The translations under genes and the position numbers were made by a program. Positions 7,617-31,422 of a stretch of 64,000 nt of DNA are shown piece after piece. How positions within the stretch are numbered: the first letter of the stretch is position 1; every line of letters starts with the position of its first letter. The notes beneath the pieces are model-generated. The model saw nothing but the letters and a program-made list of their open reading frames with translations. It did no database searches and had not been told where the DNA came from. Source of the stretch: an uncultured delta proteobacterium (GTDB lineage: Bacteria > Desulfobacterota > Desulfobacteria > Desulfobacterales > Desulfosalsimonadaceae); contig CAWGYD010000006.1 in the NCBI GenBank assembly GCA_963826785.1, positions 1-64,000 of the forward strand, in the 5' to 3' direction.

Positions 7617-9488
7617 TTATGCCGGCTCCACCTCATAATACAGCGTGTAGCGCGACAACACCTCGGCGATTTTTTCCCTGACGGCGGCTATATCCGTTCC
7701 GGCGGCGGGCTTGACGGCGATCTTGACGATTGTACCGTGGACTTTGTCCTCGCCCACGGTTACAGCGACCGATTGGACCATATCGCCCAGGGCGGCCAGT
7801 TCCTGTTCATAGACCCGTTTGGTGGCATCCCAGCGTAGGGCCGGTTTGAAGATCTTACCCACCGGGGTCAATGGGATCTGGGGCGTGATAACCACCTCCT
7901 TGGGTACGGCCGCTTTTTCACCCACGTGGTCCCTTGCCCAGGCCATGACCTGGTCCGCGTTCACACCCGATCCTTCCGCCACCTCCACGTAGGCCACGGG
8001 CACCTCCCCGGAATGGGGGTCCGGGCGGCCCACGGCGGCCACCATTTTGATGTTGGGCATCTTGTAGATCGGCTCCTCGATGGCGGCCGGGTCGATGTTG
8101 TGCCCGCCCCGGATGATCAGCTCTTTTTTGCGGCCGGTGAGCCAGAAATAGCCGTCCGCGTCCATCCGTCCCAGATCCCCGGTGTTGAAAAATTCGTCGG
8201 GCAGCCAGATCTTCTGGTTGTGGATCTCCTCCACATATCCTTTAAACACATTGGGCCCCTTGATGGCCACCACCCCGATCTCGCCCACCGCGGCATCCCG
8301 CACGTAATTTCCCTCATCATCTAAAACGGCGGTCTTCATCTGCTGGTAGGGCATGCGGATGCCGATGCTGCCGACTTTGCGCTCGCCGTCTCTGGGGTTG
8401 ATGGCCGAGGCCACCGCCCCTTCAGTCAGGCCGTATCCTTCCAGCACCCGCATGCCGGTGTGGGCCTCGAACCGCTTGAACAGCTCCACGCTCAGAGGCG
8501 CAGCCCCGCAGATGGCATAACGCAGCGAGGAGATATTGGCATCCCCCACCGGGATGTCCAGCAGCACGGACAGGATAGTGGGAACCGCGGAGAAGGTCTC
8601 CGCACGGTAGAGATCCACGATTTTATAAAAATTTTTCATGATGCCCGGGTCCCGGTACCCCATGGGAGAGAGCATCACCACGTGGGCGCCGAAGGAAAAG
8701 GGGGCAAGCCCGGTGACGATGGTGCCGTTGCAGTGAAACAGGGGCAATCCGCACAACAGCGTCATGCGCGGCTCGAACCCGCCCATGATGATCAGGTCAT
8801 AGGCCATCACCACTTCGTTGTAATGGGTCCGCCGGGCCAGTTTGGGCGTCCCCGTGGTCCCCCCGGTATGATAGAGGGAAGCGATGTCGTCTTTATCGAT
8901 TGTGCGATCGAATATGAAGCGGTCTGCGGGAAAGGTTTCCACCGCCTCCTCGTATCCCGTGATATTTTGGGCCGGGTCACTCTTGCCCATGATCTGCACC
9001 ACATGGGTCAGGGTGGGGATCTGGTAACGGATGGCATCGATTTTCTTCCACATCTCCGTTCCCGGCAGGTCGGCCAGGGTTACCAGGACCTTTGTTTTTG
9101 CCGCATTGCAGATATCCCGGATGGTGGCCCCTTCCAGCAGCGGATTGATGGGATTGGCAATACCCGCGGCTTCCGCCCCCCAGAGCACATAGTGGGTCTG
9201 GGGAAGATTGGGGAGCACATAGGTGACCACATCTTCCGGCCCCACCCCCAGATCATGAAACAGATTGGCGGTCTGGCGGATTTTGCCCATGAGGGTCTCG
9301 TAAGTGATGGGCATGGGCTGATCATAGGTGTCACCGTTTAAAAGGAAACTGATGGCCACCGCATCCGGGTTGATCGCGGCCCCCTTCTCCAGCAGTTCCA
9401 CCGTATTTTTTTCCTTTACGCGTTCGCTGCAGGGAATCTTTTCGATTTCCTCGATATCGGCAAGCCCCCGGATCGTATACTTTTCCAT
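7617..9488 (-). CDS. Acyl-CoA synthetase (AMP-forming)
   Basis: YHTGGTTGTPK, EGYGLTE, NTGDLG, GRKKELIIRGGHNIDP and TPVGKIFK motifs. Confidence 0.92.
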   Translation of the reverse strand: MEKYTIRGLADIEEIEKIPCSERVKEKNTVELLEKGAAINPDAVAISFLLNGDTYDQPMPITYETLMGKIRQTANLFHDLGVGPEDVVTYVLPNLPQTHYVLWGAEAAGIANPINPLLEGATIRDICNAAKTKVLVTLADLPGTEMWKKIDAIRYQIPTLTHVVQIMGKSDPAQNITGYEEAVETFPADRFIFDRTIDKDDIASLYHTGGTTGTPKLARRTHYNEVVMAYDLIIMGGFEPRMTLLCGLPLFHCNGTIVTGLAPFSFGAHVVMLSPMGYRDPGIMKNFYKIVDLYRAETFSAVPTILSVLLDIPVGDANISSLRYAICGAAPLSVELFKRFEAHTGMRVLEGYGLTEGAVASAINPRDGERKVGSIGIRMPYQQMKTAVLDDEGNYVRDAAVGEIGVVAIKGPNVFKGYVEEIHNQKIWLPDEFFNTGDLGRMDADGYFWLTGRKKELIIRGGHNIDPAAIEEPIYKMPNIKMVAAVGRPDPHSGEVPVAYVEVAEGSGVNADQVMAWARDHVGEKAAVPKEVVITPQIPLTPVGKIFKPALRWDATKRVYEQELAALGDMVQSVAVTVGEDKVHGTIVKIAVKPAAGTDIAAVREKIAEVLSRYTLYYEVEPA

Positions 9489-9651
9489 GATCGCGCTCCT
9501 TTGTGTTTTCTATGGTTGTCGAATCTAATCGTATTGGCTGATCATTATAATACGGGGATATTATCGGGAACCACCATATCTCCCTGCTGAAGTAGTGGAT
9601 TGTTCAAATAATTAAATTACTATATTGGTCGATCCAGTATGACTTGTATTC

Positions 9652-9734
9652 TGAATCTACTTCAAAAATAAATCTTGACATCAATTGAACCTGATTCTAA
9701 TGTTGAATCAGATTTTAGTTATGAACTGTATTAA
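9652..9734 (+). promoter_or_regulatory. Sigma70-type promoter with an overlapping operator array
   Basis: TTGACA (9675-9680), 17 nt, TAATGT (9698-9703); TGAA-N5-TTCA-like boxes at 9652, 9686, 9704 and 9722; IR CTGATTC-N7-GAATCAG over the -10. Confidence 0.65.
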
Positions 9735-9803
9735 AAAGCATAATCGCTTTAACCTATCGGATCCACGTTCAATTTAACCGGAAAAAAAGCATGGGAGACG
9801 CAG

Positions 9804-10946
9804 ATGGATTTTGAATTCACCAAAGAACAGCTGATGTTCAAAAAGGAGATCATCCGGTTCGCCAAAAAGGAGATCGTCCCGAGGGTCCAGGAGTTTGAAC
9901 TCAAGAAGCAGTTTGATTTCGAATCCTTCCGCAAGCTGGGGAATTTCGGTATTCTGGGGCTTCACTTTCCGGAAGCCTACGGGGGGGGCGGCGCGGACGT
10001 CATTACCACCGTCATGGCGGGCGAAGCCCTGGGCGAGGCCGGAGTGGACGGCGGTTTGACGCTGGCCTACGGCGCCCATACCTTTTTGTGCGCGGACACC
10101 ATCTTCCGCCACGGCACCGAGGAACAGCGGAAAAAATATATCCCCAAACTGGCTTCGGGCGAATGGATCGGCTGCATGGGGCTGACCGAACCCAATGCCG
10201 GCTCGGACGTGGCCTCCATGGCCACCACCGCCGAGAAGCAGGGCGACTCCTATGTGTTGAACGGCAGCAAGATATTTATCACCAACGGCCCCATCTCCGA
10301 CGTGGCGGTGGTGTACGCCAAGACCGAACCGGAAAAGAAGCACGCCGGCATATCGGCCTTCATAGTGGATAAAGACACCAAAGGCTTTTCCGCCGGCCCC
10401 AATCTCATCAAGATGGGGGTGTGCACCTCCCAGACCTCGGAGCTGTTCTTCAACGACTGCGTGATCCCGGCCGAAAACCTGCTGGGCAAAGAGGGCGACG
10501 GGTTCAACATGTCGCTGCAGACGGTGGAATGGGACCGGAGCGCGCTGCTCGCCCCCTTTATCGGCGCCTCCACCTACATGCTCAACCGGTGCGTGGAATA
10601 TGCCAAAAAGCGGGAGCAGTTCGGCCGCACCATTTCCCAGTTTCAGGCCATCAAGCACAAGATCGCCAACATCCGCATCTTCGGAGAAGCCGCCCGCAGC
10701 CTGGTCTACCGCATCGCCTGGTGCAAGGACCAGGGCCGGCCCTTGAACCACCTGGAAGCGGCCGTGGCCAAGCTGTTCGTGGGCGACTGGAGCATGGCCC
10801 CGGCAAACGATGCCATGGTGCTGTTCGGCGGCTACGGGTACTGCCATGAATACGACATGGAGCGGATCTTCCGGGACAGCCGCCTGGCCCCCATCGGCGG
10901 CGGGACCTCGGATATTCAGAAGATGATCATTTCCAAATTGATTTAA
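9804..10946 (+). CDS. Acyl-CoA dehydrogenase (putative catalytic alpha subunit)
   Basis: MGLTEPNAGSD, LNGSKIFITNG, REQFGRTI, FGGYGY and IGGGTSDIQK motifs. Confidence 0.93.
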   Translation: MDFEFTKEQLMFKKEIIRFAKKEIVPRVQEFELKKQFDFESFRKLGNFGILGLHFPEAYGGGGADVITTVMAGEALGEAGVDGGLTLAYGAHTFLCADTIFRHGTEEQRKKYIPKLASGEWIGCMGLTEPNAGSDVASMATTAEKQGDSYVLNGSKIFITNGPISDVAVVYAKTEPEKKHAGISAFIVDKDTKGFSAGPNLIKMGVCTSQTSELFFNDCVIPAENLLGKEGDGFNMSLQTVEWDRSALLAPFIGASTYMLNRCVEYAKKREQFGRTISQFQAIKHKIANIRIFGEAARSLVYRIAWCKDQGRPLNHLEAAVAKLFVGDWSMAPANDAMVLFGGYGYCHEYDMERIFRDSRLAPIGGGTSDIQKMIISKLI

Positions 10947-10961: not shown

Positions 10962-12096
10962 ATGAACTACGACTTCACCGAACAGGAATTCACCTTCTTC
11001 ATAAAGCTCCATGAACTGGTCACCCCCTATGCGGATGAAAAGGCCGCCGCCTTAAACGATCCGGACCAGAGCCGGGCATACCTGGACCCGGTCCTCTCGC
11101 TGCTGGCCCTCACCCCCTATCTGAAACTGGGAATCGAACCGGTGGCGGGCACAAACGGCCTGATTACCCTCATGGGCGCAATGGAAGTGGTGGCCGCCAT
11201 CTCCCCCTCCCTGGCCCTGTCCGTGGGGCAGAGCACCCACGTGTTCGGCCGGATCATCTCCTCCTGGGGAAACGATGCCCAAAAGGAAAAATGGCTGGCC
11301 CCTCTGCTTTCCGGAAAACTGCTGGGGGCAGTGGCCTTATCCGAGGACAGCCTCAATATCGACAACGCCCCCCTGGAAACTCTCGGGGTAAAAGACGGGA
11401 ATTTCGTCACGGTCAACGGCCGAAAGCAGTATGTGATCAACGCCCCCATCGCCGACTGGATTGCGGTGGCCGGAAATTATGAACGATCACCCGGTGATCT
11501 TCATGATCGAAAAGAACACGCCGGGCCTGACCGTGGGAGCGCGCAAGCACACCGTGGGCTATGACGGCGCACTCATTGCCGACATCGAGCTGGACAGCTG
11601 CCAGATCCCGGCGGACCAGGTGATTTCTGCCGGCAGCACCGATCTGCCGGCCCGGATCCGGATGTTCGAAAACCAGGTGCTCACGGGTATCAGCCTGGGA
11701 CTGATGAAAAGCGCGTTCGAAACCGCCAAAACCTATGCCAAGACCCACAAGAGCGGCAAAAAGCCCATCATTGCCTACCAGGAGATCGGTTTCAAGCTTT
11801 CAGAGATGCTGACCCTCTTCCAGACATCCCAGCTGTTTGCCTTCCGGTCGGCCTGGACGGTCCAAGCCAATCCCCGGGAAGCCGAATCCCTGACGCAATG
11901 CGCCAAGGTGTTCTGCACGGAATCATCCGAAACCGTGACCGGCGAAGCACTACGAATTCTCGGCGGCGCCGGGTACCTGGCCGGAAACGACGTGGAGCGG
12001 GCCTACCGCTGCGCCAAGTACGGCCAGATCGCCGGCACCTCCACGGAAATCGCCAGGGTCAAGATCGGCGACAATGCCCTGGGGCTCCGCAATTAG
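10962..12096 (+). CDS. Degenerate acyl-CoA dehydrogenase (putative non-catalytic beta subunit), frameshift near 11475
   Basis: Two ORFs joined by a 1-nt indel; VNGRKQYVINAP and ILGGAGY present, but TEPxAGSD is replaced by LSEDSLNID. Confidence 0.85.
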
Positions 12097-12110: not shown

Positions 12111-12782
12111 ATGCCCGGAAAGAAAGAAAACAATACGGAGAAGCTGTCCAAATCGGCGCTCCGGCGCCAGCGGGAGCGGGAGCACCGGTACCAGACCATC
12201 CTGGCGGCCGCGGAGAAGCTGTTTGCCCGGGAAGGCTACACCAAGGCCAGTATGGAGCAGATCGCCGATGCGGCCGAAGTGTCGGTGGGAGCGGTCTACT
12301 TTTATTTCAAGAACAAGGAGGACCTGCTGGTCCATTTGATGGACGAAATCGGCTACCTGCTCAGGAGCATCCTGGGCAAGGCCTTCAAAGCGCAGGGATC
12401 CACCAAGGAAGCTTTCAAACGCGCGGGGTATGCCTTTTTCGAGGATTTCTGCGTCAATTACCCGGAAAAGTGCGCCATCCTTTTCCGGGAATCGGTGGGC
12501 AAGAGCTCCGAAGTGGAGCAGCACCGAAAGGCCCTGTTCGACAAGTGCACGAACGACGTGCTCACCGCCCTGACCACGGTCTGTGAAAAGCAGGGACTGG
12601 TCTACACCGGCAAATTTTCCGCAGAAGTGGTCGCAGTCTCCATCATGGGCATCTACGAGCGGGTCGCCTACCAGTACATCATGTGGCAGAACCGGGCCGA
12701 GGACCTGAAAAACATCGGCCGGGATGCGGTAGAGTTCATCCTGGGCGGCGTCGACAACCTTTTCGAAGAATCTTCATCGTAA
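12111..12782 (+). CDS. TetR/AcrR family transcriptional regulator
   Basis: ILAAAEKLFAREGYTKASMEQIADAAEVSVGAVYFYFKNKEDL; RBS AAGGAG before ATG 12111. Confidence 0.93.
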   Translation: MPGKKENNTEKLSKSALRRQREREHRYQTILAAAEKLFAREGYTKASMEQIADAAEVSVGAVYFYFKNKEDLLVHLMDEIGYLLRSILGKAFKAQGSTKEAFKRAGYAFFEDFCVNYPEKCAILFRESVGKSSEVEQHRKALFDKCTNDVLTALTTVCEKQGLVYTGKFSAEVVAVSIMGIYERVAYQYIMWQNRAEDLKNIGRDAVEFILGGVDNLFEESSS

Positions 12783-12785
12783 ATC

Positions 12786-13367
12786 ATGCTGTTAAAAGGG
12801 GCACTTCACGTACACACCACCTGCTCGGACGGAGAATTGAGCGTCGAAGAGGTGGTGAAAATCTACACAGCGCTGGGATTTGATTTCATCGCACTGACGG
12901 ATCACGACTATCTGCTCCGGCCCAACTGCTATGATGTCATCAAAACGATTCAAACCGACATGATCATCTTCAAGGGGCTGGAACTCACGGTGTTTGAAAA
13001 AGGATACGTCCATGTCAACCGGATCAAGGGGGACAAGGAGCGGCTGCACATCTTCAATCACCCGTCGGAACTCGACCTCCCCATGGAGAAAGTGATCGAT
13101 CGCATCACCTCGGTGGCCAAACGGTTTCCCATCGACGCGGTGGAGGTCACCTCCAAGGGCTTTCGGACCCCCGAATACGAAACCGGGGAAATTCCGTTTT
13201 CCAAGGTGGCCACCGACGACTCCCACACCCGCTTGGGGTGTGGCCGGGCCTGGATCGAAATGGACTGCAAGCGGAACAAGGACAGCATCATCCGGGCCAT
13301 CCGGCGCGGCGACTTCTGGAACTGCTACACGGAGGGGCATCACCAATTTACGCAGAATGGGCGATAA
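12786..13367 (+). CDS. PHP-domain metal-dependent phosphoesterase
   Basis: LHVHTTCSDG, ALTDHD, NHP and TDDSH motifs. Confidence 0.85.
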   Translation: MLLKGALHVHTTCSDGELSVEEVVKIYTALGFDFIALTDHDYLLRPNCYDVIKTIQTDMIIFKGLELTVFEKGYVHVNRIKGDKERLHIFNHPSELDLPMEKVIDRITSVAKRFPIDAVEVTSKGFRTPEYETGEIPFSKVATDDSHTRLGCGRAWIEMDCKRNKDSIIRAIRRGDFWNCYTEGHHQFTQNGR

Positions 13368-13712: not shown

Positions 13713-14870
13713 ATGGCAAGAAAAGTTGCAATTTGTGCGGTTGCGCAGACGACATACGAGCGCAGCAAGTGGGACCAGCGGTTCCAGGGCATGGCCCTGG
13801 AGGTTTTGGAAAAGCTAAGAGAGCAGGTGGAGGTCACATTTTCCCGCCACCGTCCCGAAGTGCAGGGAATCGACATGTCCATCAACGTCTCCGATGACAT
13901 ATTCGACGCCCGCACCATTTCAGACAATGCCATGACCGACGTGCTGGGCGCCCATTTCGGATGCGAGGAAAAAGTGGCCCAGGAAGGCATCCAGGCGGTT
14001 TACTACGGACTGGCCGCCATCGCCTCGGGGCACAACGACATGGTCCTGATCATCGGCCATTGCAAGGAATCCCAGGGCAAAAGCCGCAACATGGTCACCC
14101 ATGTGGCTTTCGACCCCTTCTACACCCGGCCGGTGGGGCTCGACTTCTGCGCGGCCGCCGGCCTCCAGGCCCAGGCCTATGCGCAAAAATCGGGTATTTC
14201 CGATGCACAGCTGGCCAGGGTGGTGGTGGAAGCCCGGAAAAACGGCGGCAAAAATCCCTATATTACCGGCCTCGATCCGGTCACCGCCGATCAAGTCATG
14301 AAATCCGACCTGCTGGCCGATCCCATCCGGCAGCTCCACGCCTACCCGGTCTCCGACGGTGCGGTGGGCCTGGTGCTGGCATCCGAGGAAATCGCCCGCA
14401 AGATCACCGACAAACCCGTCTGGATCACCGGCACGGGCAACTGCATGGACAGCTTCTTTCTGGGCGACCGGGATCTGGCCGGAAACTTCGCCCTGAAAAA
14501 AGCGGCCGAACGCGCCTGCAAGCGCGCCGGCGTCAGCGACCCCAATTCCTTCGACGTGGTGGAACTCTCCGATCAGTACGCCTACCAGCTTCCCCTGTGG
14601 GCCGAGGGCCTTGGCCTGTGCGGCGAAGGGGAAGGCGCCAGGTGGATCGAAGCCGACGGCCCGGCCCGGCAGCACGTGAATCCTTCCGGCGGCATGCTTT
14701 GCGGCAACCCCCTGATCCTGGGCGGGCTGGTCCGCACGGCAGAGGCCGCGCTTCAGCTCCGGGGCGAGGCGGGCGAGCGGCAGGTGGACGGCGCGAAAAC
14801 CGCCCTGGCCCACGGGGTCATGGGACCGGCCGGACAGTTTCATTCCATCATTACACTGCAACGGGATTAG
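13713..14870 (+). CDS. Thiolase-fold protein, Ltp4-like (no catalytic Cys), module 1
   Basis: SDDIFDARTISD...EEKVAQEG...GHCKES resembles actinobacterial Ltp4; PVSDGA and VNPSGG present. Confidence 0.8.
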   Translation: MARKVAICAVAQTTYERSKWDQRFQGMALEVLEKLREQVEVTFSRHRPEVQGIDMSINVSDDIFDARTISDNAMTDVLGAHFGCEEKVAQEGIQAVYYGLAAIASGHNDMVLIIGHCKESQGKSRNMVTHVAFDPFYTRPVGLDFCAAAGLQAQAYAQKSGISDAQLARVVVEARKNGGKNPYITGLDPVTADQVMKSDLLADPIRQLHAYPVSDGAVGLVLASEEIARKITDKPVWITGTGNCMDSFFLGDRDLAGNFALKKAAERACKRAGVSDPNSFDVVELSDQYAYQLPLWAEGLGLCGEGEGARWIEADGPARQHVNPSGGMLCGNPLILGGLVRTAEAALQLRGEAGERQVDGAKTALAHGVMGPAGQFHSIITLQRD

Positions 14871-14881: not shown

Positions 14882-16078
14882 ATGAAGAAGAATCGAAACG
14901 TCGGCATCATCGGCGTCGGACAGTCGGTATTTTCGAGTCACCGGGAGGATGTGAACCAGCCTGAATTGATCCACGAGGCCGTGGCCGAAGCCCTGGCCCA
15001 TGCGGGCATGACCATGGATGATGTGGACTGCGTAGTCCACGGCAACATGGAACTGTTTGAAATGGTTCACCAGCCGGACTTGTGGCACACCCTGGGGACC
15101 GGGGCCTTCGGCAAGGAAACCCTGCGGGTGACCACCGGCGGCACCACCGGCGCCACGCTGTGCTGCACGGCCGACAACCTGGTGGCCTCGGGCCTGCACG
15201 ATGTGGTGCTGGCCATCGGGTTTGAAAAGCTCCAGGAGGGGCACACCACCGGCGGCATCACCAACATGGCCGACCCCCTGTGGGCCAGGCAGCTCCAGAC
15301 CGGGGCGCTCACCGGCATGACCGCCGCCGATGTCATCGAAGAGTTCGGCGAGGAGCGGGCCAAGAAGGCTTCCATGAAATACCGCATCCTCATGGACAAG
15401 CACGCCATGAAAAACCCCAAGGCCCATCGCCGCCTGGGGCTGGAATTCGACCAGGCCGATGACCTGATGGTCAACTCCCCGGCCCTGGTGGGGGAACTGC
15501 GCATGATCCACATGTGCTCACAAAGTGACGGCGCCTGCGCCATGATCTTTGCTTCTGAAGAAAAGGCAAAACAGTTCCGCAAGAACCCGGCCTGGATCAA
15601 GGACCATATCACCGTGCACCGGGAAGAAAGCTTCTGCGCCTTCGGGGACGCCCCGGTGCTCATGAGCCACCGGTATGCCGCGGAAAAGCTGTTTGCCCGA
15701 AACGGCATCAAGGATCCCCGCAAGGAGATCGACGTATTTGAGATGTATGATCCTTCCTCCTGGTGGGGGCTGGACTGGATGCGGGAATTTCTGCTCCTGG
15801 AAGGCGACGAGCACCTGCGGATGGTGGAAAACGACGCCATCACCCTGACCGGTGATTTTCCCATCAACCCGTCGGGGGGCGTGACCGCCTCCAACCCCAT
15901 CGGCGCCACCGCCATGGTCCGGGTGGCCGAGGCGGCCCTGCAGATCATGGAAGATGCCGGCGAGCACCAGGTGGCCCGGAAAGTCAACCAGGCCCTGGCA
16001 TCCGGATTCGGCGGCACCCTCTGGACGGTTTTGTTCCTGCTCACCCGGGACGTCCCCTGGCAGACCGAAGCGAAGTAG
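14882..16078 (+). CDS. Thiolase-fold protein, Ltp3-like retro-aldolase candidate, module 1
   Basis: RVTTGGTTG at the nucleophilic Cys position, FEKLQE, EMYDP (Tyr at the His/Asn site), INPSGG...NPIGATA; true start ATG 14882. Confidence 0.82.
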   Translation: MKKNRNVGIIGVGQSVFSSHREDVNQPELIHEAVAEALAHAGMTMDDVDCVVHGNMELFEMVHQPDLWHTLGTGAFGKETLRVTTGGTTGATLCCTADNLVASGLHDVVLAIGFEKLQEGHTTGGITNMADPLWARQLQTGALTGMTAADVIEEFGEERAKKASMKYRILMDKHAMKNPKAHRRLGLEFDQADDLMVNSPALVGELRMIHMCSQSDGACAMIFASEEKAKQFRKNPAWIKDHITVHREESFCAFGDAPVLMSHRYAAEKLFARNGIKDPRKEIDVFEMYDPSSWWGLDWMREFLLLEGDEHLRMVENDAITLTGDFPINPSGGVTASNPIGATAMVRVAEAALQIMEDAGEHQVARKVNQALASGFGGTLWTVLFLLTRDVPWQTEAK

Positions 16079-19400: not shown

Positions 19401-19433
19401 ACCGACATCATGTACTTCGAACTCATTGACTGA
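16408..19433 (+). CDS. Fusion of acyl-CoA ligase + 3x SCP2 lipid-binding domain + DUF35 (Zn-ribbon/OB), about 1008 aa, frameshift in C-run 17258-17262
   Basis: YTSGTTGNPKG; adding one C restores CGAAPLTEEVMKK; EGYGLTE; three SCP2 repeats (GKLDGMTAFTSGKLKVEGD); CPSC...CAEC Zn ribbon. Confidence 0.88.
17949..18957 (+). repeat. Three tandem 339-bp intragenic repeats encoding SCP2 domains
   Basis: Units start at 17949, 18288 and 18627; near-identical 113-aa translations. Confidence 0.95.
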
Positions 19434-20575: not shown

Positions 20576-21738
20576 ATGGCATACGACTTTAAAACCGAAA
20601 ACACCTGCCAGGAGTACTTTACCAAGGCCCATGACATGGTTCGCAAATCCGTGCGGGATTTTATCAAAAAGGAAGTGCTTCCCTTCATCGATGACTGGGA
20701 GGAGGCCGGCGAATTTCCAAAAGAGTTGTATAAAAAGGCCGCGGACGTGGGAATCCTGGGGATGGGGTTTCCCGAGGAATACGGCGGCACACCCGGCGAC
20801 GTCTTCTTCAAGATCGCCGTCAGCGAGGAGCTGATGCGCTCGGGCTCCGGGGGATTTTGCGCGGGGCTGGGGTCGCTCAACATCGCCATCCCGCCGATTC
20901 TCGCCCTGGGAACCGAAGATCAGAAGCAGAAATTCGTCGTTCCCGTTCTGGCCGGTGACAAAATCGCGGCCCTGGGCATCACCGAGCCCGGCGGCGGGTC
21001 CGACGTGGCCAGCCTGACGACCACGGCGGTAAAGGACGGCGACGATTACATCGTCAACGGCTCAAAGACGTTCATCACCAGCGCCTGCCGGGCCGATTTC
21101 GTCACCTGCGCCGTGCGCACCGGCCCCGAGGGGCCCACGGCGTCAGCCTGCTGGTCATCGAAACCGACACCCCGGGCTTTTCCGTGGCCAACAAGCTCAA
21201 AAAAACCGGCTGGTGGGCAAGTGACACCGGGGAGATCTTCTTCGACAACTGTCGGGTGCCGGCACAAAACCTCATCGGCAAAGAAAACGAGGGATTCTAC
21301 GGCATCATGATCAACTTCCAGGCCGAGCGGCTGGCGCTGGCCATCATGGCCAACATGACCGCCCGCATGGCCCTGGAGGAATCGATGAAGTACGCCAAGG
21401 AACGGATGGCCTTCGGCAAGAAGCTGACCGGGTTCCAGGTGACCCGGCACAAGCTGGCCGACATGGCCACCCTGGTGGAGGCCAGCACCGAATTCACCTA
21501 CCGGGTGGCCGCCAAAATCGGTGCCGGGGTGGACCAGATCAAGGAGGTCTCCATGGCCAAGAACTTCGCCTGCAGCGTCTCCGACAAGGTCACCTATGAT
21601 GCGGTCCAGATCTTCGGCGGGTACGGCTACATGCGGGGCTACCTGGTGGAGCGGCTCTACCGGGACAACCGGATACTGTCCATCGGCGGCGGCACCACCG
21701 AGATCATGAAGGAGATCATCACGCGCTTCATTCTATAA
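20576..21738 (+). CDS. Acyl-CoA dehydrogenase (IVD/LCAD-type catalytic Glu), frameshift in G-run near 21132
   Basis: ITEPGGGSD, VNGSKTFITS, FQAERL and IGGGTTEIMK; one extra G restores GAHGVSLLVIE. Confidence 0.9.
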
Positions 21739-23574: not shown

Positions 23575-23630
23575 AAAAATGGAAAATTGGAGTTTAGAAA
23601 AGCACAAGACTGACGGGAAGGGGAATGCTT

Positions 23631-24773
23631 ATGAGTAGAGTCGCTGTCTGCGCGGTGGCGCAGATCAAGAACGAGCCCGATATCTGGTACCAGCGGTTCC
23701 AGGGAATGCTCATGGACTGCTTCGAGTCCATCATGGGTCAGACCGGGGTCACCTTCGACATGGAAAAGGGGATCCGCAACGTGGTCACCTGCTCCGACGA
23801 CGTGTTCGACGCCCGCACCATTTCAGACAACGCCATCACCGACGTGGTGGGGGCGCACTTCCGGGGCGAGGAAAAGGCCGCCCAGGACGGCGTCAACGCC
23901 CTGGGGTATGCCATGGCCTCCATCCTGTCCGGCCATGACGACCTGGTCCTGGTGATGGGGCACTGCAAGGAATCCCAGACCGAGAGCCGGCTCATGAACA
24001 CCAACCTGGCCTTCGACCCCTTCTACTGCCGCCCCCTGGGGCTGGATTATCTCAATGCCGCCGCCCTGCAGGCCCGGGCCTACATGAAAAAGTCGAACAT
24101 TTCCGACGCACACCTGGCCCGGATCGTGGCCCGCTCAAGATTGAACGGCGCCAAAAACCCCTATGCCCGGAAAAACGACCCAGTGCAGGAAACCGACGTG
24201 ATGAATTCGCCTTTCATCTCCGACCCCATCCGGGAGCTGCACGCCTACCCGGTCACCGACTGGGCGGTGGGCATGCTTTTGTGCTGCGAGGAGCGGGCCC
24301 GTGAATTCACGGACAAGCCGGTGTGGCTCACGGGATTCGGCAGCTGCATGGACAGCTATTTTCTAGGGGACCGGGATCTGACCTCCAATTTCGCCCTGAA
24401 AAAAGCCGCCCGGCGCGCCTATGACATGGCCGGCATCTCCGATCCCAAAACCGCCTTTGATCTGGCGGAATTAAACGACGCCTACGCCTACCAGCTCCCC
24501 ATGTGGGCAGAAGGGGCCGGGCTTGCAGACGAGGGCGACGGCGGCCAGTGGATCGACAGCAACGGCATGGACAATGCCAAAGTCAACCTTTCCGGCGGGA
24601 TGCTCAACGGCAACCCCATCATGCTGGGGGGGCTCGCCCGGGCCCTGGAGTGCGTCCTGCAGCTCAAAGGCGAAGCCGGAGACCGGCAGGTGGACGGCGC
24701 CAAACGGGCCCTGGCCCACGGCACCACCGGCCCGGCCGGCCAGCATCACGCGGTCATCGTTCTTGAAAAGTAG
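23631..24773 (+). CDS. Thiolase-fold protein, Ltp4-like, module 2
   Basis: Clear paralogue of 13713..14870 (QRFQGM, SDDVFDARTISDNA, MDSYFLGDRDL). Confidence 0.8.
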   Translation: MSRVAVCAVAQIKNEPDIWYQRFQGMLMDCFESIMGQTGVTFDMEKGIRNVVTCSDDVFDARTISDNAITDVVGAHFRGEEKAAQDGVNALGYAMASILSGHDDLVLVMGHCKESQTESRLMNTNLAFDPFYCRPLGLDYLNAAALQARAYMKKSNISDAHLARIVARSRLNGAKNPYARKNDPVQETDVMNSPFISDPIRELHAYPVTDWAVGMLLCCEERAREFTDKPVWLTGFGSCMDSYFLGDRDLTSNFALKKAARRAYDMAGISDPKTAFDLAELNDAYAYQLPMWAEGAGLADEGDGGQWIDSNGMDNAKVNLSGGMLNGNPIMLGGLARALECVLQLKGEAGDRQVDGAKRALAHGTTGPAGQHHAVIVLEK

Positions 24774-24980: not shown

Positions 24981-26183
24981 ATGGCATACAAACAAAAAAA
25001 CAGACACGTGGGCATCGTGGGGATCGGCGAGACCAAGTTTTCCAGCCACCGGGAGGACGTGAACCAGCCGGAGATGATCCACGAGGCGGTCCGCCAGGCT
25101 TTGGATGACGCGAAACTGAAAATCGACGACATCGACTGCGTGGTGCACGGGAACATGGAACTGTTCGAAATGGTCCACCAGCCGGACCTGTGGCACACCC
25201 TGGGAACCGGCGCATTCGGCCGCGATTCCTTTCGCCTGACCACCGGCGGCACCACCGGCGGCACCCTGGTGTGCGCGGCGGACAACCTGGTGGCATCGGG
25301 CATGTACGACACGGTCATGGCCATCGGATTCGAAAAGCTCCAGGAGGGGCACACCACCGGCGGCATCACCAACATGGCAGACCCCCTGTGGGCCCGCAAG
25401 CTCCAGTCCGGGGCGCTCACCGACCAGGCGGCCCGCAAGCTCATCGCCGAATTCGGGGAGGACCGGGCCCGGCGTGCGGCCATGACCTACCGCATCATCA
25501 TGGACAAGCACGCCTGCAAGAACCCCAACTCCCACCGGGCCTTCGGCCTGGACTGGGACCAGATGGACGACCTGATGACCACCTCGCCGCCGCTCATCGG
25601 CGACCTGCGGCTGATTCACATGTGCTCCCAGAGCGACGGGGCCTGCGTCATCATCTTCGCCGCCGAGAAGAAGGCCAAAGAGATCACCGACTCGCCGGTC
25701 TGGATCCGGGACCACATCACCATCCACCGGGAAGAGACCCTGAACCTGTGCAACAATTACTACCCCACCGACACTACCCATAAGTTCGCCGCTGAACAGC
25801 TCTATGCCCGAAACGGCATCGATAATCCCATAGCGTACTTCGATGTGTTTGAGATGTACGACCCATCGGCATGGTGGGGGGTGGACTGGCTGCGCGACTT
25901 TTTCCTGCTGGAAGGCGACGAGCACCTCAAGCTGGTGGAAGACCACGAGATCATGATGGACGGAAAAATGCCCATCAACCCGTCGGGCGGGGTAATCGCG
26001 GCCAATCCCATCGGCGCCACCGCCATGGTCCGGGTGGCCGAGGCCGCCAAGCAGATCCGGGGAAACGCCGGCCCGCACCAGATCCCAAAGCCGGTCAACC
26101 ATGCCCTGGCTTCCTCGTTTGGCGGCACCATGTGGACCGTGCTGACCATACTTGAAAAAGAACTCAACTGGCAGGGGGTGTGA
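24981..26183 (+). CDS. Thiolase-fold protein, Ltp3-like retro-aldolase candidate, module 2
   Basis: Paralogue of 14882..16078; TTGGTTG, EMYDPSAWW and NPIGATAMVR. Confidence 0.82.
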   Translation: MAYKQKNRHVGIVGIGETKFSSHREDVNQPEMIHEAVRQALDDAKLKIDDIDCVVHGNMELFEMVHQPDLWHTLGTGAFGRDSFRLTTGGTTGGTLVCAADNLVASGMYDTVMAIGFEKLQEGHTTGGITNMADPLWARKLQSGALTDQAARKLIAEFGEDRARRAAMTYRIIMDKHACKNPNSHRAFGLDWDQMDDLMTTSPPLIGDLRLIHMCSQSDGACVIIFAAEKKAKEITDSPVWIRDHITIHREETLNLCNNYYPTDTTHKFAAEQLYARNGIDNPIAYFDVFEMYDPSAWWGVDWLRDFFLLEGDEHLKLVEDHEIMMDGKMPINPSGGVIAANPIGATAMVRVAEAAKQIRGNAGPHQIPKPVNHALASSFGGTMWTVLTILEKELNWQGV

Positions 26184-26185: not shown

Positions 26186-27035
26186 ATGAGTGCGTATTTC
26201 GGCGTAAACGTTGAAGATATTTTTAATTCCATGAAGGAGCGGTTCCGGCCGGACGGGGCGGCGGGGGTGGAAAACACCTTCGGCTACGATATCAAGGGCG
26301 AAGGCAAATGGAAGCTTGACCGTCAAGGACGGGCAGATGGCTCTTGAAAAGACAGACGACCTGTCCGGGTGCGATGTGACCCTGATCACCGACGGAGAAA
26401 CCTACGTGGGGATGAATCTCGGCAAGATCGACGGGATGCAGGCCCTGACTGCGGGCAAGCTCAAGGTGGAGGGCGACATCAACACCTTTGCCCAGACCAG
26501 CCGCATCTTCCAGAAATACGTGGCCCCGGGGGAGGATTCCGAACCCCAGCAGGAACTGCTGGTGCTGAAAAAAACCATCTCCGTGGACCAGGTTTTTGCC
26601 ACCGGCCCGGTGTTCGGCAAATTTTTAAAAGGGCTCAAAGACAAGAAAATCCTGGCCATCAAGTGCCCTTCCTGCGGCCGGCTCCAGTCGCCGCCCCGGG
26701 AGGCCTGCGCCGTCTGCCGGGTGCGAAACACCGACTGGGTGGAGATCGGCCCCAAAGGGGAGATGCGGATGATGGAATACTGCTTCTATGCCAGCCCGGA
26801 CCCGCTCACCGGGGAAACCCGGGAAACCCCCTATGGCGCCATCGGCGTCCTGCTCGACGGATGCAAAGATGAAGAGGTGTTCTGGCACCTGATGCGGCCC
26901 GATCAGCTGGATCAGGCCAAAATGGGGATCGTGCTGGGGGACAAAGTGGTGCACGGCAGCCGCCTGCGGCCGGTGTGGAACGAAAACCGGACCGGCAGCA
27001 TCAACGACATCAAATATTTCGAACTCGACGAATAA
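26186..27035 (+). CDS. Fusion of SCP2 + DUF35, frameshift near 26315
   Basis: MSAYFGVNVEDIFNSM...GKWK joins LTVKDG...GKIDGMQALTAGKLKVEGD; CPSC...CAVC Zn ribbon. Confidence 0.85.
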
Positions 27036-27046: not shown

Positions 27047-27511
27047 ATGAAAGACCAATTTGACACATCCGACTGCTACACGGTCAAGGGCAAGCTCGCC
27101 CTCCCCTACACCTATTTCGCCGGCCGGGTGGGGAGCACGTTTCTCACCACCATCCGGGACCAGCACAAGATCATGGGGGTGAAATGCAACACCTGCGGCA
27201 AGGTCTTCGTCCCGCCCCGGCAAACCTGCGAAAAATGTATGGAGGACATCCGGGACAACTGGGTGGAGGTGGGCAACACCGGCATCCTGGAAAATTTCAC
27301 CGTGGTGCGCTACGCGGACAAGCACCTGCCGAGAAAGCCCCCCTTCGTGCTTGGCCTGATCAAACTCGACGGTGCGGACACCCCGCTCACCCACATCGTT
27401 TCCGGCGTCGACGTCAACGAGGTGGTGGAAGGCATCAAGGTAAAGGCGATTTTTTCCAGCAAGCCGGAGAATACGATTCTGGGGATTTATCAATTCGAAC
27501 CGGTGGAATAG
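27047..27511 (+). CDS. Stand-alone DUF35 (Zn-ribbon/OB) protein
   Basis: CNTC...CEKC and IKLDGADT; RBS AAGGAGG before ATG 27047. Confidence 0.9.
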   Translation: MKDQFDTSDCYTVKGKLALPYTYFAGRVGSTFLTTIRDQHKIMGVKCNTCGKVFVPPRQTCEKCMEDIRDNWVEVGNTGILENFTVVRYADKHLPRKPPFVLGLIKLDGADTPLTHIVSGVDVNEVVEGIKVKAIFSSKPENTILGIYQFEPVE

Positions 27512-27518
27512 ATGACAT

Positions 27519-27643: not shown

Positions 27644-27688
27644 TTATCAGCATACATACATATCCAGCCCATAAAAGGACACGAAATC

Positions 27689-28492
27689 ATGGCCCTGATC
27701 TACGAAAAGAAAAACCACATAGCCTACATCACCTTAAACCGCCCCGAGGCCCAGAACGCCTTCGACCCGGAGACGGTTGTGGACATTTTAGACGCCTGGA
27801 CCGACTACCGGAATGACGATTCCCTCCGGTGCGCCATCCTCACCGGATCAGGGGATGAAGTCTTTTCCTCGGGGGCGGATTTAAAGCGCCTCATCCCCCT
27901 GATGACCGGGGCCCGGCAGCCGGAAACCGAGGCGGACCACAAGATCCAGAAAGACCCCTACATGACTCAGAAAGCCTTTCTGCGCAATTTCAAACTCTAC
28001 AAGCCGGTGATCGCGGCCATCAACGGCCACGCCATCGCCGGCGGGTTTGAGATCCTCTACGGCACGGACATCCGCATCGCCGCAGAAGGCGCCCGGTTCG
28101 GGCTCCAGGAGGTCAAGTGGTCCATCGTCCCGCTGATGGGATCAACGGTGAAACTCCCGCGGCAGATCCCCTATGCCATTGCCATGGAGCTCATGCTCAC
28201 CGGCGAGCTAATCGACGCCGAGGAAGCGCTCCGGATCGGTTTCATCAACAAGATCGTCCCCAAAGGCCAGGTCATGGCCGAAGCCGAGCGGTTTGCCGGC
28301 ATCATCGTGAAAAACGGCCCCCTGGCCTTAAAAGCGGTCAAACAGTCGGCCTTGGAAGGCATCGGCATCCCGCTCAAAGACGGCCTGGCAAAAGAACTCG
28401 AAATCGGCATCCCGGTTTTTCTGAGCGAAGACGCCAAGGAAGGCCCCCGGGCCTTCAAGGAGAAGCGGGAGCCCAAGTTTCAGGGAAAATAG
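27689..28492 (+). CDS. Enoyl-CoA hydratase (crotonase family)
   Basis: FSSGADLK, INGHAIAGGFE and LQEVKW (both catalytic Glu). Confidence 0.92.
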   Translation: MALIYEKKNHIAYITLNRPEAQNAFDPETVVDILDAWTDYRNDDSLRCAILTGSGDEVFSSGADLKRLIPLMTGARQPETEADHKIQKDPYMTQKAFLRNFKLYKPVIAAINGHAIAGGFEILYGTDIRIAAEGARFGLQEVKWSIVPLMGSTVKLPRQIPYAIAMELMLTGELIDAEEALRIGFINKIVPKGQVMAEAERFAGIIVKNGPLALKAVKQSALEGIGIPLKDGLAKELEIGIPVFLSEDAKEGPRAFKEKREPKFQGK

Positions 28493-28658: not shown

Positions 28659-28950
28659 GTCGAAGCTTTGAAATAAATTCCTCCGAAGCATTTTACCCTC
28701 TTGCGTGGTACTTTCACGCATTGTCAGTGAAGCGACAGCGCAACGGTTGTCAATCGTAATCGAATTGATACAACGATTACGATTGCAGCAACCACAACTG
28801 GTAAGAAGCAAAAGTGGGCAACGCCCCATGTGAATCGCCGATATCTGTTTGTAAACTGAATATAAAAGCATTATAAAGAAATCTGAACTTATATCATTCG
28901 CCTTCTCTTCGCTTTTGAAAAATTCAATAAACCACCTGAATGGAGGATGT

Positions 28951-29019
28951 ATGCCAGAGCAATCCTTCGATCACGACCACATCGTCATCGGCCCGGGATC
29001 CGGGGGGAGCGGGAAATAA
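28951..29019 (+). pseudogene. Possible 5' remnant of an FAD-dependent oxidoreductase
   Basis: RBS GGAGG followed by MPEQSFDHDHIVIGPGSGGSGK*, resembling a Rossmann D-x-I-V-I-GxGxGG start. Confidence 0.4.
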
Positions 29020-29020
29020 G

Positions 29021-29320
29021 ATGGAAACCAGTAACCTGAAAAAAATCGAAAATGCCCTGCGAAACAGACGAGCCGAAATGGCTCGAGATTACGGGGTTTC
29101 AGAAATTGGAATTTTCGGATCACATGTCAGGGGAGAATCTTCCGCCGACAGCGATATTGATATCCTTGTCGAGTTCGATAGACCGATCGGGTTTTTTAAA
29201 TTTCTGGAGTTCGAGGAGCGCCTGAGTAAATGGCTGGGCACAAAGGTGGACCTGGTCACAAAAAACGCGCTCAAACCGCATATAGGTCAAAATATCTTGA
29301 ATGAAGTAAGGAAGATATGA
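29021..29320 (+). CDS. MNT (minimal nucleotidyltransferase) antitoxin
   Basis: GIFGSHVRGESSADSDIDILVEF (GSX10DXD). Confidence 0.9.
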   Translation: METSNLKKIENALRNRRAEMARDYGVSEIGIFGSHVRGESSADSDIDILVEFDRPIGFFKFLEFEERLSKWLGTKVDLVTKNALKPHIGQNILNEVRKI

Positions 29321-29409
29321 AAAGAGACTATCGGGATTACCTGAAGGATATTCTGACCGCTATCGATGAATCGGCCGAATTCACGAAGTTTTTTGGTTCG
29401 TGGATTTGA
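29317..29409 (+). pseudogene. Truncated HepT/DUF86 toxin
   Basis: ATGA overlap with MNT; MKRDYRDYLKDILTAIDESAEFT then a stop after 30 aa. Confidence 0.75.
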
Positions 29410-29498
29410 GCATTGTAGGATGGTCTCAGGGAAGAATTGATTGCGTGAAGCTACAAATGGAAGGCAGGATGTAAATCATCTCAAAGAAAGGATAGGGA

Positions 29499-31422
29499 AT
29501 GGCCACCAGGTACAAGGGATACATGGGCAGGGTGTTGGACATCAACCTTTCCACCGGCAGCATTGGCGAATACCCGCTGACCGACATCGACCGGGAAAAA
29601 TTTTTAGGCGGCCGGTTCATCAGCACCAAGATCCTGTGGGATGAGCTTTCACCCGGCGTCGACCCGCTCTCGCCGGAAAACATCCTGGTGGTCATGACCT
29701 CCCCCCTGACCGGCACCAACGCCCCCTCCACCAGCCGCTTCGACATCTCCGCCAAGAGCCCGCTGACCGGGGGCATCGGTCACTCCAACTCCGGCGGCAG
29801 CTTCGGCATCCATTTAAAGCGCGCCGGGTATGACGGCATGGTCATCCGGGGAAAAGCCGAAAAGCCGGTTTACATCGACATCGAAGAAGATGCGGTGCAG
29901 ATCAAACCCGCAGACCACCTGTGGGGCAAAAACACCGAAAAGACCCAGGAGGCAATGGAAAAGGCCGGCACGCTGGTCATCGGCCCGGCCGGGGAAAACA
30001 GGGTCAAGTACGCGGTGGTGGTGGCCGGCGAGCGGGTCCACGGCCGCACCGGCATGGGGGCGGTCATGGGATCCAAAAATTTAAAGGCCATCACCGCCTC
30101 GGGCAAGAAGAAGATTGAGCTGGACAAGCCGGAAAAATTCAAGTCCGGAGTGAAAAAATGGATCGACATGATCAAGCGCCACCCGGCCACCGGCGATTCC
30201 ACGCCCAGGCTCGGCACCGCCCAGTTCGTCAACATCCTGACCAAAGAAGAACGCCCTGCCCACCCGCAATTTCTCCCGGGGCTCCTTTGAAGGGGCGCAA
30301 AACATCAGCGGCGAGCGGCTGGCCGAAGATTTTCTGGTCAAAAACTCCGGGTGCACCTCCTGCCCCATCCGGTGCGGCCGGGTGGTGGAACTCGACGGAA
30401 AAGAGATCAAGGGTCCGGAATACGAGATGCTCTGCCTGATGGGATCGAACCTCGAAATCGACGACCTGCCCGCCATCATCCGGTGGAACTACGAACTCGA
30501 CCTTCTGGGGCTGGACACCATCACCACCGGCAACACCCTGGGGTTTGCCATGGAATTAAATGAAAAAGGGATCTGGAAAACCGACCTCGAGTTCGGCAAA
30601 AAGGAGAACATCTCCCAGACCATAGAAGACATCGCCTATCGCCGGGGAATCGGGGATGATCTGGCCGAAGGGGTGCGGTTTCTGTCGGAAAAATACGGGG
30701 GCAAGGAGTTTGCCGCCCACTCCAAGGGGCTGGAAATCGCCGGATACGAGCCCCGGGCCGCCGTCGGCCATGCCTTGGGGTATGCCACGGCCAACCGGGG
30801 GGCCTGCCACCTGGACGGCGGGTACATGATCTATTTCGAAGTCTCCGGCCCGCTCACCCTCAAACCGTCCCATTACCGATCCAAGCCCTCCTGGACCATC
30901 CTGGACCAGAACCTCATGGCCGCAGTCGGCGCCGGCGGCAACTGCCTGTTCACCGCCTGGACCTTTGTCCCCGGCTTCGCCTACAAGCTGCCCGGCATGA
31001 AATGGACGTCTAAAATCGTCACCGCCATGCTGACCTACACCTGGTTTCTGATCACCCTGACGCTCAAGATGCCGCCCATGCTGCTCAAATTCAACCTGCC
31101 GCTGCTGCCCCACCCCAAATTCATCCGGCTGGCCACCGGCATGAAGATGGACTTCGGCAGATACATGCGCGCCGGCGACCGGGGCTACAACCTGGAGCGC
31201 CTGTTCAACCTGCGAGAAGGCATCGGCAAAGAAAAGGACAGCCTGGCGTCGCGATTCACCGACGAGCCCCTGCTCCCGGGAAAACCCAAGTCCATCGTGC
31301 CTTTGGATAAAATGCTCCCAAAATACTACAAGATCCGCGGCTGGGACGAAAACGGTATCCCCCGGCAAAAAACGCTCAAGAAACTGGGGCTGGAGTTTGC
31401 GGATGAAAGACGGATGAACTGA
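29499..31422 (+). CDS. aor: Aldehyde:ferredoxin oxidoreductase (W/Mo-pterin AOR family), frameshift near 30244
   Basis: GYMGRVLDINLS, AKSPLTG, GAVMGSKNLKA, LPTRNF, CTSCPIRC, GPEYE, GLDTI and YYKIRGWD. Confidence 0.9.

Follow-up and report, generated by a model that had tools for sequence, protein, structure and literature searches.

Paired thiolase-fold proteins akin to Ltp3 and Ltp4 as candidate retro-aldolases for branched acyl-CoAs in a widespread anaerobic operon

The first 64,000 nucleotides of contig CAWGYD010000006.1 (positions 1-64,000; assembly GCA_963826785.1), from an uncultured delta proteobacterium of the Desulfosalsimonadaceae, are referred to here as the window; between positions 7617 and 31422 they encode a system of acyl-CoA-converting enzymes built around two cassettes, a and b, each consisting of a thiolase-fold gene pair and two DUF35 proteins. 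We find that the thiolase-fold proteins are relatives of the actinobacterial proteins Ltp4 and Ltp3, and that the module is real, widespread and uncharacterised. The pairs are probably retro-aldolases of some kind. Our preferred reading, held tentatively and with slightly less than even confidence, is that they are DUF35-scaffolded retro-aldolases acting on 3-hydroxy, 3-methyl-branched (isoprenoid-type) long-chain acyl-CoAs, which would be cleaved to acetyl-CoA and a ketone or beta-keto acid. Below, L numbers denote compared loci and G numbers compared genomes, G000 being the genome that holds the window (4.43 Mb, 87.8% complete; its closest loci are from Desulfobacterales).

The gene inventory, the residues, the tree, the gene neighbourhoods and the co-occurrence of genes are observations, and we begin with these. 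As read from the open reading frame (ORF) listing and from Pfam and NCBIfam scans, the inventory agrees with the counts in a preliminary description of this DNA: three AMP-forming ligases, three acyl-CoA dehydrogenases (ACADs), two hydratases (MaoC and crotonase), four thiolase-fold proteins, four DUF35 domains (all carrying a C4 zinc ribbon) and four SCP2 domains (three plus one). Its statement that there is no 3-hydroxyacyl-CoA dehydrogenase (HAD) and no canonical thiolase is true within the interval 7617-31422; elsewhere G000 has six HAD matches at five places, four canonical thiolases and nine aldehyde:ferredoxin oxidoreductases (AORs). The genes are arranged in the order LigA (divergent), ACAD1, ACAD2, TetR, PHP, L4a, L3a, ligase-SCP2x3-DUF35, DUF35-MaoC, ACAD3, LigC, L4b, L3b, SCP2-DUF35, DUF35, crotonase, an MNT insertion and AOR.

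All four thiolase-fold proteins were said to lack the nucleophilic Cys, and alignment bears this out. The motifs GGTTG and EMYDP are also present, with the correction that both sit in the same two proteins, the Ltp3-like L3a and L3b, rather than GGTTG in all four; the Ltp4-like L4a and L4b have AQEG and AQDG at the Cys position, and ELSD or ELND replaces their Tyr motif. The nucleophilic Cys of SCP2 thiolase aligns with Gly90 of L3b, and Gly90 and Tyr293 (L3b numbering) are invariant in the 107 Ltp3-like sequences of the window and the compared loci. Tyr293 aligns with the Tyr of the YDHF motif of Ltp2. Among 99 Ltp4-like sequences, neither the Cys nor the Tyr is found, the Cys position being occupied by Gln, Gly or Ser. 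The Tyr of YDHF or YDCY is the base in both Ltp2 and Sal, the respective acids being Tyr344 and Cys304 (PMC12329534). The thiolase motifs NEAF/HDCF and the His of GHP are replaced by YDPS and ANP in the Ltp3-like proteins, and by xDxY and GNP in the Ltp4-like proteins of the window. What is found instead is the active-site signature of Ltp3/Ltp4 (Gly at the Cys position, YxP and xNPIGA) together with their gene arrangement, in which adjacent Ltp4-like and Ltp3-like genes are accompanied by two DUF35 proteins, twice in the window and throughout the 77 loci described below.

For phylogenetic comparison, the references were actinobacterial loci L090, L092 and L094 (order crotonase-ligase-DUF35-ltp4-ltp3), a YDHF-bearing Ltp2 homologue and BbsB genes. 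Locus L092 passes the PRK08313, PRK07937 and EchA19 models, its pair scoring 734 and 593 bits; we take PRK08313 and PRK07937 to be models of Ltp3 and Ltp4, with which the gene order of L092 agrees. The window proteins are 30-36% identical to Ltp3/Ltp4 and miss both models (275 and 251 bits against a cut-off of 514 for PRK08313; 167 and 177 bits against 419 for PRK07937), and are best regarded as kin of Ltp3/Ltp4, not members. In a tree of 61 rows, from which four incomplete proteins and near-duplicates of six loci were excluded, and in which Ltp2 is represented by the YDHF-bearing Nocardia homologue L096 (Sal and the PDB Ltp2 sequences not being among the rows), the window proteins join Ltp3/Ltp4 with a joint clade support of 96/93, the Ltp4 side having 97/94 and the Ltp3 side 90/90. 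They stand apart from Ltp2, BbsB, SCP2-type and canonical thiolases; some long branches meet. BbsB forms a separate clade, and the window proteins score 59-90 bits on its NCBIfam model NF053628 (cut-off 750). The phylogeny proposed in the preliminary description thus yields two Ltp4-like/Ltp3-like pairs, and not thiolases.

A heterodimer of L3b and L4b is predicted (score 0.95, against 0.00 for the best control), although thiolase-fold dimers have already been solved and the score may therefore reflect likeness; the mark used is reached by 116 of 157 solved pairs and 2 of 215 mismatched pairs. At least 94% of the contacts are the same between runs, with a pLDDT of at least 92 for the partners. 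The monomer model of L3b (mean pLDDT 79, active-site loops low) is informative on the fold only. A fold search gave SCP2-type thiolases, BbsB, Ltp2 and Sal at 18-26% identity, the nearest solved structures being SCP2-type thiolases; no solved structure of the Ltp3/Ltp4 branch was among the PDB matches.

Two samples define the distribution of the module: 77 loci kept from 262 stretches encoding relatives (Desulfobacterales, Smithella/Syntrophaceae, Spirochaetota and others), and 201 genomes of the order, evenly drawn and partly overlapping with the loci. The module is found in Desulfobacterales, Smithella-like bacteria and Spirochaetota. HAD is encoded in none of the 77 loci and a canonical thiolase in three, where it is divergent across the same promoter region; a PHP-domain gene is present in 47, a CoA-transferase in 19 and an AOR in 7. 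Both cassettes occur in 7 of the 201 genomes, cassette a only in 9, and only a more distant type (36-43%) in 8 more. Ltp4/Ltp3-like pairs of a third type (about 40% identical, with plain DUF35 partners; L031-L060, L170) accompany cassette b in Spirochaetota/Smithella-type loci and cassette a in some Desulfobacterales. A further pair lies in the cultured aerobe Cupriavidus necator (L093, 4331-10206), with a crotonase, a ligase and two small partner genes, the product of one having a DUF35 OB-fold match; no named relative that we saw is closer than its Ltp4-like protein (40-41%), and this locus could serve as a genetic model.

A number of observations bear on the possible product. Ltp3-Ltp4 is described as cleaving its substrate after carboxylation and hydration of the C24 branch, the carboxylate that is left needing re-thioesterification (PMC6678751); because the substrate is carboxylated and branched, the product according to this account is a keto acid, not an aldehyde. 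BKACE converts a beta-keto acid and acetyl-CoA to an acyl-CoA and acetoacetate (PMC11961710). DUF35 no. 4 is fused to a BKACE in 25 of 27 cassette-b loci of the Spirochaetota/Smithella type, and in none of 30 of the Desulfobacterales type. The same BKACE subfamily is present as a stand-alone gene in five of the seven two-cassette genomes, none of the nine one-cassette genomes and 8 of the 185 others; it often precedes a CoA-transferase pair, and it lies beside the operon in G098 and G138. A ketone carboxylase for a methyl-ketone product was considered and rejected, the sole hydantoinase-B match of G000 having no supporting neighbours. Anoxic decay of phytol has been linked to a C18 methyl ketone, which is not used as evidence here.

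The operon appears to belong to a regulon. A palindrome, TTGAAYYNRRTTCAA, lies upstream of ACAD1 in 13 sequences, with 18 sites at up to two mismatches against 0.37 in shuffles; the pattern was derived from those same regions and the shuffle count is thus flattering, so that independent support for the predicted operator comes from matches found elsewhere. The window has three copies; with two mismatches allowed, the pattern by itself is not rare in a 64-kb sequence. With a matrix trained without the window, G000 has 17 intergenic matches of at least 13 bits. The top one lies 35 bases ahead of a gene for a flavoenzyme (C4:121296-123296); the closest relative of known structure is 2,4-dienoyl-CoA reductase. 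In L003 and L004 an orthologue of this gene (68%) lies physically within the cluster. Of 15 other matches, most lie before unrelated genes and are probably chance. None of the 17 best intergenic matches is at the HAD genes of G000, which agrees with the preliminary description. In exact-match scans of 10 genomes the sites lay for the most part within genes or in front of unrelated ones, and those used are limited to the cassette promoters and two perfect sites, one before an unlinked BKACE-CoA-transferase operon (G014) and one between LigA-like and LigC-like genes (G112). No operator was found upstream of 14 PHP genes of the Spirochaetota/Smithella type (best 10.6). In one case (L148, G138:C84) a site resembling the operator stands before the gene for a subunit of a 2-hydroxyacyl-CoA dehydratase, which may be chance.

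There are also signs of a link to acyclic terpene catabolism. Relatives carry an Atu-like operon of carboxyltransferase, biotin carboxylase, crotonase, AtuA, an AtuD-type ACAD, TetR, TIGR03084, a reductase and an ACAD3 orthologue, the last being 66-79% identical over its C-terminal part. In the Atu route the lyase step is listed for AtuA, with release of acetate and a 3-oxoacyl-CoA remaining (PMC4847356); a different review gives this role to LiuE (PMC4097962). Among cassette genomes, 12 of 16 have a dienoyl-CoA-reductase-like gene (24 of 185 others) and 7 of 16 an AtuC-like carboxyltransferase (33 of 185). AtuA is present in only two of the seven carboxylase-bearing genomes with a cassette, against 30 of the 33 without; BKACE occupies the AtuA slot in G138 and G004, and G119 has both. 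An AtuD-type ACAD (52-53%) adjoins the cassette in 3 of the 77 loci. These patterns suggest that cassettes can stand in for AtuA, which we regard as a lead. The Atu-like operon (L182-L186, L168) is itself common in the order, with a carboxyltransferase of at least 70% identity in 40 of the 201 genomes and AtuA in 50; some copies have BKACE where AtuA stands, and a description of the operon in sulfate reducers was not seen.

The AOR was described as lying about 1 kb downstream, and it begins 1,007 bases past the crotonase. In relatives it comes after the crotonase in 7 of the 77 loci, three of them having gaps of 39-82 bases. Where cassette b is followed by at least 2.5 kb of sequence, an adjacent AOR is present in 6 of 20 loci of the Desulfobacterales type (a seventh contig ends inside the AOR) and in 0 of 20 of the Spirochaetota/Smithella type. 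The subfamily is encoded in five of the seven two-cassette and two of the nine one-cassette genomes, that is, 7 of 16 against 5 of the 185 others (at most six candidates were scored per genome), and is adjacent to a cassette in three of the seven. The suggested test of co-occurrence therefore supports synteny in some relatives and enrichment in cassette genomes, but also makes the AOR optional, 14 of 20 and 20 of 20 loci being without an adjacent copy. The in-cluster AORs fall in two clades, with stand-alone copies nested within one, and the nearest relatives (85-86%) stand alone, without beta-oxidation neighbours, in genomes without a detected Ltp3-like gene. No operator was found in 15 regions upstream of AOR genes (best 6.5 bits, against at least 11.7 in the training sites), and a promoter and terminator scan of the crotonase-AOR gap gave chance level. 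An AtuC-like carboxylase is present in 9 of the 12 AOR-subfamily genomes, including four of the five without a cassette. A hydrophobic insert (about 30952-31123), not found in the other AORs of G000 where these align, would fit lipophilic aldehydes. The AOR link is real but optional, and the AOR follows a lipid/terpenoid lifestyle at least as well as it follows the aldolases; it more likely supplies acids than closes a cycle. In one locus (L030:13635-15737) a neutral ceramidase occupies the usual slot of the AOR. Biotin carboxylase was considered as a general member of the slot behind the cassette and rejected, being present in 1 of 77 loci, as part of a Liu-type block in L022.

A scheme that would accommodate these observations is as follows, every reaction and the substrate being inferred. 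A ligase, with SCP2 domains as lipid carriers, would activate the acid, and ACAD3 or ACAD1/2 would form the enoyl-CoA. The tethered MaoC or the crotonase would hydrate the branched carbon, the methyl group optionally having been carboxylated beforehand, which is what happens in the Atu and sitosterol routes. The hydroxyl proton would be accepted by Tyr293 of the Ltp3-like subunit, with the Ltp4-like subunit as a structural partner. A beta-keto acid product could be re-activated by a ligase or CoA-transferase and pass to an ordinary thiolase, while in relatives the docked BKACE would cleave it. AOR would convert lipophilic aldehydes, derived from alcohols such as phytol or farnesol, to acids for the ligases. 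A tertiary alcohol is not oxidisable (PMC8399759), and this would explain the absence of HAD; the need of the keto acid for re-activation would explain the spare ligases. The BKACE fusion, the exclusion of AtuA, and the ACAD3, TetR and reductase held in common with Atu-like operons all point towards this reading.

Several considerations weigh against it. The function of Ltp3/Ltp4 is itself taken from the account of genetic work in a review, and the retro-aldolase activity of the present proteins is deduced from their likeness to characterised enzymes. The general acids of Ltp2 (Tyr344) and Sal (Cys304) are absent, with Asn (the Asn342 region) and Pro295 in their places, and the mechanism is therefore incomplete. 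In G000, the matching BKACE and CoA-transferase subfamilies were not found, only distant BKACE (27-36%), nor were an AtuC-like carboxylase (best 39%), AtuA or an AtuD-type ACAD, in a genome that is 87.8% complete; the AtuA search gave a match in a positive control, the carboxylase is present in three of four same-family genomes, and G000 does have a Liu-type block of carboxyltransferase, HMG-CoA-lyase-like protein and acetoacetate-CoA ligase. An identification of ACAD3 as AtuD was rejected: ACAD3 is a separate LCAD-clade enzyme, and its identity to the ACAD that takes the AtuD place in an Acinetobacter atu operon is only 40-41%. Nine of the 16 cassette genomes are without an AtuC-like carboxylase, and in two-cassette genomes the AOR subfamily and BKACE are equally frequent (five of seven each). 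The genomes are kin, so that co-occurrence counts overstate; the five cassette genomes without AtuA amount to about three lineages, and the exclusion of AtuA is for this reason a lead only.

The preliminary description had proposed a different cycle, in which a secondary 3-hydroxyacyl-CoA is cleaved to an aldehyde that AOR oxidises with reduction of ferredoxin, followed by re-activation by a ligase; this is the logic of Sal and Sad with AOR in place of Sad. Such a cycle would agree with the absence of HAD from the loci and from the best operator matches in G000, with the enrichment of AOR behind the crotonase (in two clades) and in cassette genomes, and with the DUF35-MaoC fusion, which has the architecture of Shy, the partner of aldehyde-forming Sal (PMC12329534); such genomes may also use other AORs, of which G000 has several. 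Nevertheless, the proteins group with Ltp3/Ltp4 rather than Ltp2 and have no counterpart of the YDCY Cys of Sal, and the chemistry of Ltp3/Ltp4 gives a keto product. The cluster has no constant aldehyde-oxidising enzyme of the Sad kind, and no aldehyde dehydrogenase was among 66 neighbour proteins scanned; the AOR is mostly non-adjacent, is behind cassette b and not a, has no operator of its own, and has closest relatives that stand alone. Moreover, each round would spend an AMP-forming ligation that thiolysis avoids (PMC8399759), which we expect to be costly for sulfate reducers and syntrophs. As the core design, the aldehyde-AOR cycle thus does not hold up well, and we consider it unlikely; it may be restricted to cassette a, which tethers MaoC and a ligase. 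The two schemes could also be joined in a HAD- and thiolase-free beta-oxidation of isoprenoids by two alternating aldolase machines in strict anaerobes, which as a joint proposal is unlikely: cassette b would cut at methyl branches, the resulting beta-keto acid going to a BKACE that is docked or co-regulated, and cassette a would cut the unbranched step to an aldehyde, which the membrane-leaning AOR would oxidise with ferredoxin.

The preliminary description also envisaged sterols or bile acids, and a sterol, bile-acid or hopanoid side chain, with the rings left unopened, would suit the kinship to Ltp3/Ltp4, the EchA19-like crotonase, the SCP2 domains, the adjacent divergent ACAD pair, which resembles those of steroid systems, and the score of the co-regulated flavoenzyme on BaiCD (467 bits, cut-off 825). 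We nevertheless consider such a substrate improbable: no KstD-like protein was found in the 87.8% complete genome, the search matching only the FAD-binding start of proteins (best E 9e-8; cut-off 788 bits), no steroid-ring gene was among the 66 neighbour proteins, the best solved relative of the flavoenzyme is a dienoyl-CoA reductase, and the common parts point to Atu-like operons. It is equally improbable that the pairs are non-degradative, carrying out thiolysis via another nucleophile or aldol addition of acetyl-CoA to a ketone, or serving as scaffolds for docked enzymes. Here one may point to Cys215 and Cys222, both invariant in the 107 Ltp3-like proteins, to the general acid, which is not identifiable, and to the SCP2-type thiolases as nearest solved folds; against this, Cys215 aligns with a Cys found also in Ltp3, Ltp2 and BbsB, off the nucleophile position, Asn replaces the GHP His, the neighbours (ligases, ACADs and hydratases) are catabolic, and Tyr293, which is invariant, corresponds to the catalytic base in each of the two characterised aldolases.

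Table 1. Features of the system in the window
Feature	Position	Strand	Remark
LigA, acyl-CoA synthetase	7617..9488	-	PRK07529 above cut-off; divergent, operator region common with operon
Three palindromic TTGAAYYNRRTTCAA copies, predicted TetR operator	9651..9717	.	motif search
ACAD1, acyl-CoA dehydrogenase	9804..10946	+	ORF/profile scans
ACAD2, divergent acyl-CoA dehydrogenase	10962..12096	+	frameshift near 11480
TetR-family regulator	12111..12782	+	47-49% identity to TetR of relatives' Atu-like operons
Small PHP-domain metallohydrolase, conserved member	12786..13367	+	47/77 loci
L4a, Ltp4-like thiolase-fold subunit	13713..14870	+	without nucleophilic Cys, without aldolase Tyr
L3a, Ltp3-like subunit	14882..16078	+	Gly at Cys position; YDHF-type motif Tyr retained
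LigB, acyl-CoA ligase + three SCP2 + DUF35 no. 1	16408..19433	+	frameshift near 17260
DUF35 no. 2 + MaoC hydratase fusion	19480..20373	+	Shy-like architecture
ACAD3, LCAD-clade dehydrogenase	20576..21738	+	frameshift near 21130
LigC, long-chain acyl-CoA ligase	21757..23574	+	profile scans
L4b, second Ltp4-like subunit	23625..24773	+	about 60% to L4a
L3b, second Ltp3-like subunit	24981..26183	+	67% to L3a
SCP2 + DUF35 no. 3 fusion	26186..27035	+	frameshift near 26317
DUF35 no. 4, stand-alone in window	27047..27511	+	BKACE-fused in Spirochaetota/Smithella-type loci
Crotonase	27689..28492	+	best NCBIfam match EchA19, 293 bits vs cut-off 400
MNT nucleotidyltransferase + truncated, presumably HEPN-like remnant	28940..29410	+	MNT in 0/77 loci
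Aldehyde:ferredoxin oxidoreductase (AOR), optional member	29499..31422	+	distinct subfamily; frameshift near 30243

The features are collected in Table 1; the TetR regulator, the PHP-domain gene and the MNT/HEPN-remnant insertion, the last lying outside the system, were absent from the preliminary description. LigA is rarely beside the module (one weak match in 77 loci), and is counted in the system because in G112 its 66% orthologue has this operator next to it, along with a crotonase and a cassette of related type. From its adjacency and divergence, ACAD2 is possibly the partner subunit of ACAD1. The PHP protein (193 aa) is encoded directly before the first Ltp4-like gene in 47 of the 77 loci, in two phyla, and is paralogue-free in G000. 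In 3 of 77 loci a very-long-chain ligase of the PRK08279 type stands in place of LigC. LigB has its three SCP2 domains (17945-18922) as 339-base tandem copies, 91-95% identical, whose number differs among orthologues, which suggests recent expansion or conversion.

Five genes of the system are split by frameshifts. Orthologues in L001, L014, L019 and L072 are unbroken (that of LigB in L001 is an intact protein of 1,006 aa) and 56-89% identical across the breaks, with similarity equal on either side; unrelated genes of the window (ADH, hydrolase, AcrB) are likewise split, and the frameshifts are therefore likely to be assembly indels. Many unrelated genes of G000 are frameshifted (for example window 31991-34362 and 54771-58005; C10:263759-264848; C6:438113), so that claims of gene loss from this assembly need caution. 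The intergenic gaps of the operon contain GC-rich palindromic repeats (13399-13581, 16121-16342, 20388-20558 and 7523-7555) of the types CCCCCTCxAGGGGG and CCCCCTTTxAAAAAGGGGG, which vary between relatives and look like REP-type elements; further short inverted repeats are at 24823-24931 and 27513-27649. Downstream, the adjacent ORFs at 36508-37730 and 38292-41417, without a Pfam match and near a NUDIX gene and a PLD-helicase-DUF3427 protein, resemble a nucleotidyltransferase-type abortive-infection pair, and the region is a possible defence island.

To our knowledge, little is settled at the gene level about how strict anaerobes pass the beta-methyl branches of isoprenoids such as phytol and archaeal lipids. 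The operon supplies named, expressible candidates, a predicted operator with which the regulon could be defined, and a clear way to tell an aldehyde from a keto product by experiment. If the preferred reading is correct, these proteins would be the first non-steroid members of the Ltp3/Ltp4 branch of thiolase-fold aldolases; if the combined scheme with two aldolase machines were true, AtuA would be replaced, and sulfate reducers, Smithella and spirochaetes would gain a route for acids derived from phytol and archaeal lipids. Databases label these proteins acetyl-CoA acetyltransferases, and metabolic reconstructions of sediments and digesters consequently miscount them as thiolases.

Finally, we consider how the system compares with those already known. 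The preliminary description knew of no characterised example in a strict anaerobe; a published study of this module in strict anaerobes was likewise not found in our search, which left subscription papers and supplements outside, but DUF35-partnered thiolase-fold aldolases are already known, as is an aldolytic side-chain shortening without HAD or thiolase in anoxic denitrifiers (PMC12329534, PMC6678751 and PMC8399759). The present analysis adds the counts for the AOR, the predicted operator and the connection with Atu-like operons. The module is most like Ltp3-Ltp4 of actinobacterial C24-branched sterol cleavage, with which it shares the Ltp4-then-Ltp3 order, two DUF35 domains per pair, a nearby EchA19-like crotonase and ligase (L092; FadD19 and EchA19 act in sterol side-chain cleavage, PMC6273163), the active-site signature and the clade. 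It differs in that the pairs are duplicated, more distant in sequence than the NCBIfam cut-offs allow, and found in strict anaerobes, that steroid-ring genes were not found, and that the DUF35s, which form one tandem protein in the actinobacterial system, are separate proteins bearing a ligase and SCP2s, MaoC, SCP2 or BKACE. With Sal-Shy-Sad of Pseudomonas and Comamonas, and with the route of Sterolibacterium denitrificans, it has in common a Cys-less thiolase fold, DUF35-MaoC, a Tyr base, several ligases and a cluster without HAD or thiolase; however, Sal is a homodimer with YDCY, whereas the window proteins are predicted to be heteromeric and have YDP, and Sad is an NAD-linked dehydrogenase, in place of which AOR occurs in some genomes only. 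Ltp2-ChsH2(DUF35) (PDB 6OK1) is similar in its Tyr base, its DUF35-tethered hydratase and its conversion of a tertiary 3-hydroxyacyl-CoA to a ketone, but belongs to a separate clade at about 22-24% identity, and the His of YDHF and the acid Tyr344 are not found in the window proteins. BbsAB and the SCP2-type thiolases share the fold, and BbsAB alone the DUF35 partner, but both still have the nucleophilic Cys as well as the motifs HD and GHP. The Atu/Liu system (AtuA-H) faces the same chemical block, a beta-methyl branch, and ACAD3, the TetR family and the reductase are found in the Atu-like operons of relatives as well; the two part at the cleavage step, where AtuA leaves a 3-oxoacyl-CoA and acetate, whereas a thiolase-fold aldolase would give acetyl-CoA and a free keto acid.

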